Of a stretch of DNA of 64,000 nucleotides, positions 37,801 to 40,800 are shown piece by piece. The DNA is taken from assembly GCA_963716395.1 (NCBI GenBank), contig OY970309.1:2848001-2912000 (forward strand), in the 5' to 3' direction. Source of the DNA: an uncultured Fibrobacteria bacterium. Lineage in GTDB: Bacteria > Fibrobacterota > Fibrobacteria > UBA11236. Numbering within the stretch: the first letter of the stretch is position 1; each line of letters begins with the position of its first letter. A program made the position numbers.

Positions 37801-40800
37801 CACCTTGCAGGGCGGCCCAGGCCACCAAAGGCGCCAGATTCAAGGGTTGGTTGACCCCCCCCAAAAATTGAATTCCCGAGGCGGTCAAGGCCAACAGCCA
37901 GCAAATCGAGGCCAGACTGCCCAGGGGATAAGCGCCTTTGCCGGCCTTGGTCAATAAGACGGCGGTGGCAGCTACGGAGAGGGTGAGCAACCACATGCCG
38001 GGGGTGGGTGGAATTTCTCCCAAGGTCGGCAAATAGGCGACCCCCACCACCACATAGGCGGCTCCGCAAGCGACAAGGAAAAGCTCAAACGCCTTCATGG
38101 ATGGCAATCGATTTGGAACTGGAAGCGGGCCTCGCGGGAATGTTCATGCGCAATCTTTTGTTATTGTAGTACCGGTGTCGCAAAAAAAGCCACTTCCGCG
38201 TTTGACGCTGGGAAATCGACTTCCGTATCGTTTTTTGGAGATTCTTCCGCAAAGTTGGAAACACCGCTATCTGCTGCGTCAGAGCGGCGGCGACGTCGAT
38301 TGCGGGGTTTTCGACCTGTCCAAGAAACTGCAAGCGTTGCGCCGCCTCCTGATCGTTTGGCCCGAACGCGTCGAAGAGATGCTGCTGGCCGTACCTACGG
38401 TGAAAGCCTTGTCCGAGGCGCTCGGGAACGGTGCGACCTGCGCACATTTCGCCGAGGTGCGCACGGTTCCGTTTTTATCGGGGTTATTCCCGGCCGCTCC
38501 GTTGGTGGGGTGGGATCGCGGAAGCCTGGCTTGGCATGAGCCGGCCGTGCAAACCGCGTTGGCTTCGTTGCGGGCCTTTCATCCCGACGCCGCGATTTGC
38601 TGGTTGAATCCCTTTCCTTCGGTATTACAGGCCGTGGTGAAAGCCTCGGGAGCCGGCATTCGCATCGCCTTTGAAAGCGTGGGCACTTGGCCGTATGCCA
38701 ATGTCGAAATGGCCCCGGATGCCGAAAATCCCTTGCCGGCCCGCTATTTTCACTGCCTGGCTTTGTGGCGCTATGCCGGATTTTCTCCCCAGGAAAAATG
38801 GGCGCGCATCCAATCCGATGCCGAGCAACGCCGAGACGCCGCGGACAAATGGGCCGGGGCCCTGGCTCAACCCGAACAGACCTGGCTGTATCTGCACCTC
38901 TCCGACGGCCAGGATCTCGACGATGCTTTGCATGCCCAACTCAGCCTGTGCCTGCAGGCGCATGAAGCCGCAGGGTTTCGGCTGGGTTGGGTGGAATGGG
39001 CAGCGGCCGCCTCCGGCCCGGGTGAGGGAGCCTGGCGCGGCGCTCCGAGTTTGCAAGCTTCGGGCTGGAGTAACCTGCTGGCCCTCATCGAGGGCGTGCG
39101 CGGCGTTTTGGCTTTTCAGGGCGCGGCCCTGCATTTCGCCAGCCTGGCCGAGGTGCGCTGTCTGGCCCTGTTGCGGCGCAGCGAAGCGGCCTATGACGCT
39201 TCGCGTTGGAACCGGCTGTTCCAACCGGCCTGGGTGTGATTTTGATCACGGTATAGTTCCGTGATCTGCCGTACTGCGGCTAGAGGTATTGTTTCCAGCG
39301 GGGATTTTCCTGCACTTTTTTCACCAATTGCTTGAAATGGGGGATGCGCGACTTGTCGGCGACTACGGTAACGCCGTTGTGTTGCACCACCAGGAGGTTA
39401 TCGACCCCGAAGGTGCAGACCAGGCCGTCGGAAAAGCAGGTGTTGCCCCGGCTTTCGAGCAGCAGCGCTTGCCCCACGCTGCGGTTGCCGGCTTCGTCGG
39501 GTGCATGCAGCCGATCCAGGGAACTCCAGGAACCGATGTCGTCCCAGGCAAAGGCCGGAATCACGGCCGCGATGCTTTCGGATTTTTCCAACAGGCCGTA
39601 GTCGATGGAAACGTCTTCGAGATTTCGGTAAATCCGTTTCAGCTTGGCCGCGAAAGTCGGGCGGCGGGGATTCAAGTCGCCTTCGGCCTCGAACGCCTGC
39701 GCCGTATGGGGAAGGTGCCGGCGAAACTGTTCCCACAAGTAGTCCACCCGCCAGGCGAACATGCCGCTGTTCCAGAGAAAGTCGCCCGATTCGACATAGG
39801 CCTGGGCGTATTCCGGCGAAGGTTTCTCGTGAAAGCGAATGATTTTTCGCACGTCCAAACCCTGCACCGATTCCGCGGCCGTAGATCCCGTTTCGATGTA
39901 TCCATAGCCGGTATCGGGACGGGTGGGCCGGATTCCAAATACCACCAGACAGTCTCCCCGGCGCGCGACTTCGGCGGCGGCGCGCAGGGCGCGCGCGAAT
40001 TCGCGCGCCGGTCCGATGGCGTGATCCGCGGTCAGCACCAGCATCACCCCTTGCGGATCCTCGCGCTGGATGAGCCGCGCCGCCAGGGCGATGGCCGCGG
40101 CGGTATTGCGGCTTTGCGGTTCGGCGACCCGTTGTACGCCCGCCAGGCCGCGCACCTTGGCCTTGACCGGAACCTCCAGGTTTTTCCCGATGATAAGCCG
40201 GATTTTACCGCGGCGCTGAAAGGCGCGGATATTCCGCAAGGTGTCTTCGAGCATGGAATGTGAAGTCACCAGCGGCAGAAGCTGCTTGGGATGCTTGGAA
40301 TTGCTGTAGGGCCAGAATCGTTCTCCCCGGCCTCCTGCCATCACTACGGGATGAATCATGCCGCCTCCTGCAAGGAAAGCCCAAAAATAGCAGTTCACAT
40401 ACATAAACAAAGCCGAAAGGGTCTAAAGGGTACCTCTAACAATCGCATTCCGGCTGCGACTCCGCCTGCGGCGGACGAAGGCCTCCGGCTTTGTTGTCCG
40501 CCGCAGGCGGAGCGATATTCAACCATATCGCCTTTCTCGCGCGTCTTGCCGGCGGCCTTCTCGCTTGGTCTTCCGCCGTAGGCGGACCTTCGGCGGACCG
40601 ATTATTAGAGGTACCCTAAAGTTTTTGGCGCCCATGCGTTTCAGTCCGGAAAAGCCGCGGGCGGCCATCGAGTTTTTGGGTGGGAAATAACGTGTAATGC
40701 CGAATCGGTAACAGTATTATAGGCAGAACAACCCGTATTTAGGGCAGCAGAGGATTGGGGTAGCATGGCCGGGCCGGGGCAACATCGGAGAAATACCGGA

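Follow-up and report, generated by a model that had tools for sequence, protein, structure and literature searches.

A 189-bp MITE with three hairpins

The window, a stretch of 64,000 nucleotides from the genome of an uncultured Fibrobacteria bacterium (G000; 3,754,783 bp, 59.8% GC, 99% complete), contained five copies of the hairpin TCCGCC-N3-GGCGGA (Table 1), against an expectation of 0.02 from 100 shuffles. Three of these copies were carried, as described in the first-pass annotation, by a single MITE (genome positions 2888428-2888616), which is located between a divergent gene pair. The first two hairpins of this MITE paired together in the predicted fold of the single-stranded DNA. A hairpin-bounded module of 75 bp was present in MITE copies of 176-189 bp and missing from a copy of 114 bp; its first 60 bp are listed in Table 1, and the remaining 15 bp correspond to one hairpin. 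The fourth hairpin of the window was found in a MITE of a second family, which accounts for three hairpins in the genome, and the fifth in a short repeat family with six members. An Rfam scan of the window yielded only a tRNA at 17734-17807 and no family for the hairpin.

Table 1 Hairpins, MITEs and their parts in the window (window coordinates).
Feature	Position	Strand	Remarks
Hairpin TCCGCC-TTA-GGCGGA, short six-member family	19035..19049	.	flank AATGAACTACC..CG common to four copies
Lone degenerate MITE end	21947..21964	-	2 mismatches; no partner within 3 kb
Target-site duplication TAAA, left copy	40424..40427	.	from the sequence; both flanks identical
MITE with three hairpins, 189 bp	40428..40616		inverted ends of 18 bp; TAAA on both flanks
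Left terminal inverted repeat GGGTACCTCTAACAATCG	40428..40445	+	1 mismatch to family consensus
Hairpin 1, TCCGCC-TGC-GGCGGA	40461..40475	.	reverse complement of hairpin 2
Hairpin 2, TCCGCC-GCA-GGCGGA	40497..40511	.	loop identical to that of the hairpin ending the GIY-YIG gene
First 60 bp of hairpin-bounded 75-bp module	40512..40571	.	from comparison of MITE copies
Hairpin 3, TCCGCC-GTA-GGCGGA	40572..40586	.	from hairpin scan
Extra half-site GGCGGAC	40592..40598	+	5 nt past hairpin 3
Right terminal inverted repeat, right end CGATTATTAGAGGTACCC	40599..40616	-	perfect consensus on minus strand
Target-site duplication TAAA, right copy	40617..40620	.	from the sequence; both flanks identical
Second-family MITE, ends GGGTCCGTTAAGAAATAACCGC, TTA/TAA flanks	44871..45038	+	contains hairpin 44926-44940
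Hairpin TCCGCC-TCT-GGCGGA in second-family MITE	44926..44940	.	absent from paralogue at genome 2744672

The first MITE family comprised 18 copies with paired 18-bp ends (0-4 mismatches). Their lengths ranged from 36 to 204 bp (57-204 bp in the first-pass annotation). Perfect 4-bp target duplications (TTAA, TAAA or TTGG) flanked six of the 18 copies, and most of the others were one base off. The family contained 18-22 of the 59 hairpins outside the tRNA-Asn locus (18 in the first-pass annotation). It has the inverted ends, the target duplication and the small, non-coding, multi-copy insertions of a MITE, and is a genuine MITE family that carries part of the hairpin repeat. The searches described below yielded no full-length, transposase-encoding element with these ends. 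Related MITEs in G025, G006 and one metagenome contig had no perfect hairpin.

The intergenic gap at the site of the 189-bp MITE measured 445 bp in G000 and 163-350 bp in 10 of 11 genomes of the same genus, the eleventh giving no match that spanned the gap. Only gap lengths were compared, because these genomes are ~68% identical and intergenic alignment is impossible. The first MITE family was not found in any of the 11 genomes. The 189-bp MITE is a lineage-specific insertion. One soil sequencing run, in which this organism was present at low depth, gave no sign of insertion polymorphism; a 75-nt skip in that run was rejected as a polymorphism, since its flank led to the paralogous 114-bp copy at genome position 1317241.

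Inverted ends and target duplications are the classic marks of a DDE transposase and not of a GIY-YIG enzyme. The first-pass caveat of a DDE transposase as mover of the MITE could not be confirmed, as no element with matching ends was found. No transposase was carried by an element with the MITE ends in G000, in the order's 38 remaining genomes or in four metagenome loci, the latter obtained by an exact-end scan of metagenome contigs and containing no full element. Within G000, the only candidate pair of MITE ends within 3 kb was a chance pairing, no real pair at such a distance enclosed a transposase, and the lone ends had no demonstrable transposase-like partner; lone MITE ends in G009 had no partner. 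Three transposase families and Y1 were searched for in G000: the only DDE_Tnp_1 element was rejected as a partner of the MITE on account of its unrelated ends, DDE_Tnp_4 was absent, and DDE_Tnp_1_2 was represented by a fragment only. In a self-BLAST of G000, the repeats with two copies were few and 0.8-1.8 kb long, and none had MITE ends at its borders. Y1_Tnp (PF01797) had no match in G000, and a REP/RAYT system was rejected for this genome because it has no Y1_Tnp gene.

Abundance and placement of the hairpin

The recount for G000 agreed with the first-pass annotation, with 64 copies of TCCGCC-N3-GGCGGA, 3 copies of the pattern read backward, and the first rank among all perfect hairpins with a 6-bp stem and a 3-nt loop (1946 in total; 28 for the runner-up). 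The inverted arrangement GGCGGA-N3-TCCGCC occurred twice, and the same stem with loops of 2, 4, 5 and 6 bases had 3, 1, 4 and 1 copies, respectively. Leaving aside the tRNA-Asn locus, a crude gene model from ORFs and codon usage (2790 genes, 85% coding) assigned 46 of 59 copies to intergenic DNA, slightly fewer than the 48 counted before, and 13 to ORFs, 4 of them no more than 100 nt from the predicted start. The hairpin is a real, dispersed and mostly intergenic repeat.

In a logo of 60 oriented copies, the conserved part was limited to TCCGCC-KNN-GGCGGA-C. BLAST of the flanks (±150 bp) grouped the copies into clusters of 18, 6, 5 (the tRNA-Asn locus), 4, 3 and 3, with 25 singletons, and no repeated flank was present within 250 bp of 24 of the 59 copies. 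In G039, the same hairpin was embedded in quite different, unrelated composite palindromes. The repeated unit is hence the hairpin itself, as the logo retains nothing else, 24 copies have no repeated flank and the G039 composites differ. The composite GGCGGAC-CNNN-GGCGGAC was found in 6 of the 60 copies. On the leading and lagging strands, 17 and 18 hairpins were counted, showing no bias, with the proviso that the orientation of a palindrome is weakly callable.

Six of the 12 lone genic copies encoded Ser-Ala-x-Gly-Gly. In dnaN, the hairpin region seems to substitute for a variable loop and to be no pure addition; compared with the nearest orthologues, the loop has four extra residues. This loop varies among orthologues, and G031 has a degenerate SAQGG at the same place.

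The tRNA-linked nuclease and its hairpins across genomes

About 500 kb from the window, G000 carries a tandem GIY-YIG cassette at a tRNA-Asn gene. The nuclease is a single-domain protein of 95 aa, for which the Pfam GIY-YIG family (residues 5-70) was the sole family match and an NCBIfam scan gave none. The closest solved structures are the UPF0213 proteins 1ywl and 1zg2, and the catalytic residues Y5, Y16, R26, H30 and E53 were invariant in 16 homologues. Hairpins are present on both sides of the gene, one at genome position 3348930, 146 nt ahead of the first ORF, and one at 3349345, at the ORF end. The C-terminus (...GRASPPQAD-TAA) is encoded by a piece of tRNA D-arm together with the hairpin. 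The hairpin provides the final codons of the nuclease gene, including its stop, and, in the 'ghost' tRNA copies of the cassette, takes the place of bases 29-34.

Nuclease relatives adjacent to tRNA genes occur in many phyla. A same-strand tRNA gene was located within 500 nt in 44 of 59 related loci; among the other 15, 12 begin no more than 320 nt from the start of the locus. The pattern CCGCC-N2-5-GGCGG was found within 450 nt in 18 of the 59. In cassettes at Asn, Tyr, Gln, Lys, Cys, Ser and Ala tRNAs, a stretch of the ghost tRNA (6 to 18 nt) was exchanged for a hairpin, and the intact tRNA was always hairpin-free. Two small genomes had most or many of their hairpins (9 of 11 and 4 of 9) about 300 nt or less from tRNA genes; a nuclease gene was lacking at most of these places, which look like gene-less hairpin units. 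A plasmid search with the nuclease protein returned two distant, uninformative Firmicutes matches. The literature consulted on GIY-YIG proteins with tRNA genes or partial tRNAs and on SsnA, including the accessible part of PMC9897764, contained no tRNA-linked GIY-YIG cassette; the supplements of PMC11893778 may list such cassettes.

Different nuclease lineages had different cassette hairpins, of the types TCCGCC, TCCGAC, TCCCGA, TCCCGGC and CCTGCC. The own-type hairpin was usually enriched in the respective genome (for example 53, 83, 27 and 14 copies, with controls of 0). For the TCCGCC type, the counts in five genomes were 53, 83, 9, 14 and 11, each with a control of 0, and tandem and abutting hairpins were seen in such genomes. 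The TCCCGA type had 42 copies versus 0 in its own genome and 0-2 copies in four others, the TCCGAC type 8 copies in its own genome (control 1) with 0-2 in the other genomes, and the TCCCGGC type 11 versus 0, in its own genome only. Several genomes had two or three hairpin types each. Enrichment of the own type was observed in four of five tested genomes, in some of which the hairpin had spread past the cassette locus; the exception was G046, where 9 of 11 own-type hairpins were confined to the cassette array.

Within the order (39 genomes including G000; G015 is unpublished), the hairpin counts were 64 in G000, then 27 and 13, and 0-11 in the other 36, the same figures as reported earlier for the relatives. 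In an unselected survey of 296 genomes of the phylum, the best three nuclease matches, from three taxonomic families, were G000, G305 and G002. With 64, 14 and 27 hairpins, respectively, these are three of the four richest genomes of the phylum. Beyond them, at least 10 hairpins combined with a low control were found only in G301 (28) and G005 (13), in neither of which a close nuclease was detected (81% and 66% complete, respectively). Of the phylum's 25 GIY-YIG-positive genomes, 22 had 0-4 TCCGCC hairpins, low counts that other hairpin types may account for. The first-pass claim that cassette-bearing genomes are rich in the hairpin is borne out for the closest cassettes, and the own-type enrichment in four of five genomes goes further than that claim. 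Exceptions to the association are G046, the hairpin-rich G301 and G005, the genomes with several hairpin types and the 22 genomes with few TCCGCC hairpins. Comparison among genomes, which as relatives are non-independent samples, supports an association of the hairpin with the nuclease lineage.

Interpretation and comparison with known systems

We infer that the hairpin is probably a substrate of the nuclease, as the first-pass annotation had proposed, and favor, with a probability of roughly 0.55, the reading that (G)TCCGCC-N3-GGCGGA(C), a unit of 15-17 nt, acts in cis as the DNA hairpin of the single-domain GIY-YIG nuclease. The nuclease would bind the hairpin in single-stranded DNA and probably nick beside it, as Ssn nucleases do at SRM/NTS hairpins. 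Copying or recombination in trans of units with the hairpin would follow, in the manner of REPs with RAYT. In G000, the hairpin would have left its tRNA context; it is now present as lone copies and within at least two MITE families. The insertion sites of these MITEs are TTAA/TAAA or TAA, and their lengths differ by hairpin-bounded modules. The absent strand bias counts against a mechanism on single-stranded DNA, since such a mechanism might predict one. The hairpin could also be the cis-acting end of the cassette, an immunity patch or a repair product instead of a cut site.

A broader and more tentative proposal, to which we give somewhat less than even odds, is that the hairpin forms the cis-acting end of an undescribed class of cassettes mobilized by the bare GIY-YIG domain, with gene-bearing and gene-less units entering tRNA genes and a lineage-specific hairpin that escapes in some genomes. 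Such units would insert repeatedly in the anticodon, D-arm or T-arm region and bring along the displaced tRNA half, so that the tRNA gene is kept intact; tandem ghost arrays on both sides of the tRNA would follow from this insertion. The escaped hairpin would seed REP-like repeats and MITE cargo chromosome-wide.

It is unlikely that the hairpin is a passive palindrome inside MITEs moved by a DDE transposase, lost or acting in trans, with the cassette copy secondary and the nuclease without a role. The inverted ends and 4-bp AT-rich target duplications of the family that holds 18-22 of the 59 copies, the three more hairpins in a second such family and the lineage-specific insertion (the longer gap in G000 and the absence of the family from the 11 same-genus genomes) all fit this explanation. 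Against it, MITE-free phyla have the same hairpin at the equivalent position of the cassette, 24 copies have no repeated flank, the G039 hairpins reside in unrelated repeats, and the MITEs of G025, G006 and the metagenome have no perfect hairpin. Nor did G000, the 38 genomes or the four metagenome matches contain a transposase-bearing element with these ends, the sole DDE_Tnp_1 element having other ends.

We likewise assign a low probability to a homing-type nuclease that reads intact tRNA genes, in which case the hairpin would stand in place of the recognition site in protected ghost copies and the dispersed copies would stem from cassette-templated break repair. Such a patch agrees with the exchange of 6 to 18 nt for the hairpin in place of plain insertion, with the hairpin-free state of the intact tRNA and with the apparent substitution in dnaN. 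However, dispersed copies in G000 had no tRNA-like flank (matches to ghost tRNAs of only 12-14 nt, at the chance rate), and just 3 of the 59 had a tRNA gene within 600 nt. A patch also does not need one conserved sequence across tRNAs and phyla, and the tandem and abutting hairpins suit a cis site better.

Quite improbable, in our estimate, is a REP-like site of a host protein or other mobilizer with a role in the chromosome or mRNA, linked to the nuclease by shared genome ancestry. Although the intergenic copies, some excess at convergent gene ends (12 convergent versus 6 divergent loci) and the BIME-like clusters and mosaics would be in line with such a site, RAYT is absent from G000, and across unrelated phyla, as well as in genomes rich in AT, enrichment goes with the lineage of the nuclease. 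That the hairpins are intrinsic terminators or regulatory stems at the RNA level is highly improbable: several copies directly follow stop codons and three (1791641, 2206392 and 3630298) have a T-rich tail, but the other 61 have none, 12 lone copies lie within ORFs, no Rfam family matched, and no terminator-like match was found at the MITE copy of the window, which lies between divergent genes.

The Ssn/SRM principle is a minimal GIY-YIG nuclease together with its own genome-wide hairpin. If the nuclease acts on the hairpin, this newly found principle would extend to a lineage whose motif differs and whose genomic home is another, at tRNA genes. Nuclease and hairpin pairs of five types (TCCGCC, TCCGAC, TCCCGA, TCCCGGC and CCTGCC) form a natural panel that could show how a 95-aa protein reads single-stranded DNA, and the pairs may be usable as site-specific cutters of it. 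Action of the nuclease on the hairpin would also help explain partial-tRNA arrays that mislead tRNA annotation, assembly breaks (many related loci stop at contig edges) and the spread of a short palindrome both alone and as MITE cargo. If cassettes are indeed mobilized by the bare domain, GIY-YIG would be the third enzyme class, after DDE and HUH, behind bacterial repeat families. If the nuclease is uninvolved, what remains is a clean but ordinary description of an environmental bacterium's REP-like repeat and its two families of MITEs.

Several known systems share parts of this organization. Rickettsia palindromic elements, of about 100-150 bp, also occur in frame within protein genes; here, Ser-Ala-x-Gly-Gly is encoded by six of the 12 lone genic copies. 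The present hairpin is much smaller. Correia elements and dRS3-bounded NIME mosaics of Neisseria are small and non-coding, with inverted ends, AT-rich target duplications and palindrome-bounded modules. The MITEs share the ends, the duplications and the length variants produced by such modules; they differ in that the searches above found no cognate transposase or full-length partner and in sharing their internal palindrome with a nuclease cassette. I-TevI and the T4 Seg genes are free-standing GIY-YIG homing endonucleases lodged at conserved genes, whose target is changed in genomes that carry them. The cassette similarly lodges a GIY-YIG gene at a conserved gene with an altered target, but the nuclease has no separate DNA-binding domain, the target gene stays intact beside tandem ghosts, and the conserved junction hairpin is dispersed through the genome.

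REP and BIME sequences are short extragenic palindromes in mosaic clusters, tied to a RAYT (Y1 HUH) gene that is flanked by the repeat. Extragenic palindromes that cluster in mosaics and are linked to one gene with the repeat in its own flanks are found here as well. In contrast to REP/RAYT, there is no Y1_Tnp, the enzyme is a GIY-YIG protein, and the unit is shorter (15-17 nt) and a nearly perfect palindrome.

The closest parallel is provided by the Ssn nucleases, which are paired with SRM/NTS hairpin repeats in a layout likened by the authors to IS200/IS605 and REP/RAYT (Chenal et al, Nat Commun 2025; PMC11893778); the word tRNA is absent from the accessible part of that article. The label SRM-like, used in the first-pass annotation, applies to the hairpin only by analogy: the published SRM pattern fitted 0 of the 64 hairpins and was not enriched in G000 (15 matches versus 12 in the reversed genome). 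Further differences from Ssn are that the genes here are embedded in arrays made up of tRNA genes and their ghosts, and that part of the repeat is MITE-borne. As described for Ssn (PMC11893778), a protein of about 95 aa with GIY-YIG as its single domain is encoded by a gene flanked by a short GC-rich hairpin, the hairpin has tens to hundreds of intergenic copies, and homologues each have their own hairpin. The cassette of G000 has its hairpin within 500 bp on both sides of the gene and a genome-wide excess of it (64 versus 2-3). In our reading, the repeat is both REP-like and Ssn/SRM-like: a cis site that belongs to a tRNA-linked GIY-YIG cassette and has made its way into MITEs.

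The hairpin repeat in the window's genome

The window's own genome (G000) is a single contig of 3,754,783 bp with 59.8% GC; the 11 same-genus genomes (G028–G038) measure 1.9–2.7 Mb against its 3.75 Mb and share only ~68% nucleotide identity with it in conserved genes. The hairpin TCCGCC-N3-GGCGGA occurs 64 times in G000, compared with 2 occurrences of the inverse arrangement and 3 of the pattern read backwards, reproducing the 64 copies and reversed control of 3 in the first-pass annotation. It tops all 6-bp-stem, 3-nt-loop hairpins of the genome (the runner-up has 28 copies), and forms with other loop lengths are scarce (1–4 copies per length). 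Conservation in an oriented logo of 60 copies was limited to TCCGCC-KNN-GGCGGA-C, which makes the hairpin itself the repeated unit. BLAST comparison of the flanks gave clusters of 18, 6, 5, 4, 3 and 3 copies plus 25 singletons. No strand bias was found in G000, and no insertion polymorphism was seen in the same-genus genomes or in one matching sequencing run.

Five of the 64 hairpins lie at the tRNA-Asn locus. The remaining 59 are mostly intergenic, as had been claimed, with 46 (rather than 48) between genes and 13 in ORFs under a crude gene model; 85% of the genome is coding. Within ±250 bp, 24 of the 59 had no flank repeated elsewhere in G000. Only three have a tRNA gene within 600 nt, and no ghost (partial) tRNA flank was found above chance level at these dispersed copies. 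The earlier remark that some copies look like terminators applies to the 3 of 64 followed by a T-rich tail, a number that led us to reject terminators as an explanation of the class. Twelve lone hairpins fall within ORFs, six of them in phase and encoding Ser-Ala-x-Gly-Gly. One of these is in dnaN. The G000 dnaN is 4 residues longer than its nearest orthologues at the hairpin loop, which is itself variable, and the same-genus genome G031 has a decayed SAQGG there. A short six-member hairpin family includes window position 19035; two copies of it sit 12 nt past a stop codon.

Coordinates of hairpin-associated features (window or G000 positions unless a locus or contig is named)
Feature	Position	Details
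MITE copy, 189 bp	window 40428-40616	ends GGGTACCTCTAACAATCG and perfect inverted copy CGATTATTAGAGGTACCC; TAAA on either flank
Three hairpins of the 189-bp element	window 40461, 40497, 40572	TCCGCC-N3-GGCGGA
Second MITE family, copy	window 44871-45038	ends GGGTCCGTTAAGAAATAACCGC; TAA/TTA flanks
Lone degenerate MITE end	window 21947-21964	partnerless; directly 3' of a 499-aa ORF
Short-family hairpins	window 19035-19049; G000 374695, 2648721, 3319862	each 3' of AATGAACTACC..CG
Hairpin and near-copy of extra half-site in dnaN (sliding clamp)	G000 2132738	in frame, VASALGGPGAD; variable loop
57-bp MITE copy	G000 1244456-1244599	3 nt past 3' end of tRNA-Leu gene
tRNA-Asn cassette	G000 3348700-3349910 (3348.7-3349.9 kb), outside window	one intact tRNA-Asn gene
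Only DDE_Tnp_1 insertion sequence of G000	L088 1240-2585 (~3751207-3752552)	30-nt imperfect inverted ends beginning GCCCCCGCTGG
Directly abutting hairpin pairs in cassette-bearing genomes	G041:C40:3174-3203; G042:C149:1763-1792; G042:C219:3318-3347	15-nt period

Carriage by two MITE families

The hairpin has spread past tRNA genes in G000, in part as cargo carried by two MITE families. The largest flank cluster (18) is the MITE family of the first-pass annotation, whose inverted ends and mostly TTAA/TAAA flanks were recovered in 18 paired-end copies of 36–204 bp; the flanks are TTAA, TAAA/TTTA and once TTGG, with a perfect 4-bp duplication in 6 copies. Its smallest hairpin-bearing form, 57 bp, reads end-G-hairpin-GAATG-end, and longer forms vary by modules bordered by hairpin copies or the half-site GGCGGAC. 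Twelve paired copies hold 17 perfect hairpins and the remaining 6 only decayed ones. The second family comprises at least 7 copies, two internally deleted; three carry the hairpin, which is absent from one paralogue. The ends of both families open with GGGT.C.

The 189-bp element proved to be as previously described in its length and its three hairpins, and has the ends and TAAA flanks tabulated above. Two further window hairpins (19035 and 44926) lie outside it, making five in the window against a shuffle expectation of 0.02. As single-stranded DNA the element is predicted to fold into a single long stem (-65 kcal/mol, z = -9), in which hairpins 1 and 2, mutual reverse complements, pair with each other. 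It separates a divergent gene pair (nucleotidyl transferase and PHP-domain protein); a scan for terminator-like and promoter-like sites gave no hit in it, and it matched no Rfam family. The gap at this site is 445 bp in G000 versus 163–350 bp in 10 of 11 genomes of the same genus, the remaining one having no match that spans it; hence, this copy is an insertion in the lineage of G000.

No protein-coding element with first-family ends was found in G000, and the only end pair within 3 kb, considered as a full-length partner, was dismissed as a chance pairing. G000 has no Y1 transposase, no DDE_Tnp_4 and only a fragment of DDE_Tnp_1_2; its one DDE_Tnp_1 element, which a 798-bp two-copy repeat adjoins, has ends unrelated to the MITE. 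Since the DDE search covered these three DDE families, a transposase of a different one may move the MITE. First-family ends occur in none of the 11 same-genus genomes and once or twice in each of three other genomes of the order. None of the related MITEs of G025, G006 and one metagenome contig has a perfect hairpin.

Nuclease cassettes and hairpin types across genomes

At the tRNA-Asn cassette of G000, three 84-bp units, each a 5' part of the tRNA, lie 5' of the intact gene, and 340-bp units, in which a GIY-YIG ORF precedes a 3' part of the tRNA, lie 3' of it. In all partial copies bases 29–34 (CGACTG) are swapped for TCCGCCGCAGGCGGA, and the ORF runs through the hairpin and takes its stop from the anticodon-loop TAA. 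Of the ORF copies, two are identical and the third, outermost, is truncated; the product, 95 aa long, consists of a bare GIY-YIG domain with catalytic residues invariant across homologues.

With each species represented by one genome, a scan gave 59 related loci, distributed over Planctomycetota, Verrucomicrobiota, Bacteroidota, Ignavibacteriota, Patescibacteria, Acidobacteriota and other phyla. A same-strand tRNA gene lies within 500 nt at 44 of them, and 12 of the 15 others start no more than 320 nt from the locus start. Partners span at least 15 tRNA identities in many phyla (G000 cassette; loci L002, L011–L069, L140). Ghost tRNA pieces are the rule, in tandem runs of up to ten copies (at L061, of the first 27 nt of tRNA-Val), and the junction hairpin stands in place of a segment of the anticodon arm, D loop or T arm. 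Hairpin types are lineage-specific: TCCGCC, TCCGAC, TCCCGA, TCCCGGC, CCTGCC, CCCGGC and TCCC.

Five genomes with TCCGCC cassettes held 53, 83, 9, 14 and 11 hairpins versus 0 in controls. In five genomes with differing cassettes, the own type was enriched in every case and several types co-occurred in some; in G046, 9 of 11 TCCCGGC copies lie within the cassette array, and this type barely occurs outside it.

Hairpin count/control in five cassette-bearing genomes, own type in brackets; CCTGCC counts contain overlapping double counts
Pattern	G044 (TCCGAC)	G045 (TCCCGA)	G046 (TCCCGGC)	G047 (CCTGCC)	G048 (TCCGCC, N4 loop)
TCCGCC	13/1	15/0	6/3	0/0	7/0
TCCGAC	8/1	2/3	0/4	0/0	0/2
TCCCGA	0/1	42/0	2/1	1/0	2/1
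CCTGCC	2/0	24/0	6/0	6/0	18/0
TCCCGGC	0/0	0/0	11/0	0/0	0/0

Among 296 unselected genomes of the phylum, 25 matched the GIY-YIG protein (E <= 1e-8). The claim that cassette-bearing genomes are hairpin-rich held for the three best matches, G000, G305 and G002 (64, 14 and 27 hairpins), which represent three taxonomic families, but the other 22 positives have 0–4 each; related genomes in this association are non-independent samples. G305 carries a tRNA-Ala cassette on a contig that begins within a hairpin. Beyond these three, only G301 (28) and G005 (13) reach 10 or more hairpins with a low control, and no close nuclease was detected in either of these incomplete assemblies. In G039 the hairpins are part of composite palindromes whose arms read CCTCCC/GGGAGG, a form with no counterpart in G000. 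Of the hairpins in two small genomes, 9 of 11 in one and 4 of 9 in the other lie no more than ~300 nt from a tRNA gene, in most cases with no nuclease gene.

Possible relation to the Ssn/SRM system

The feature constant across genomes is the hairpin with its link to a single nuclease lineage; its carriers vary by genome. The hairpin fits best as a putative cis site at which the GIY-YIG nuclease acts, on the model of Ssn/SRM (PMC11893778). Gene-less hairpin units would then be acted upon in trans, and tandem arrays may have arisen by repeated insertion of hairpin-ended units with one tRNA half. The lack of insertion polymorphism and of strand bias, the exceptional genomes and the non-independence of relatives all speak against a stronger claim. 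We found no published account of the different motif, the tRNA-ghost home, lineage-specific hairpins or MITE carriage, although supplements of the Ssn paper may list such loci. The repeat-plus-nuclease principle itself is already published (PMC11893778). The G000 hairpin does not match the SRM pattern given there, which speaks against membership in the Ssn system, so that 'SRM-like' in the first-pass annotation holds for the analogous layout only: a GIY-YIG nuclease paired with its own hairpin, the nuclease being here no more than a candidate for cd10448.
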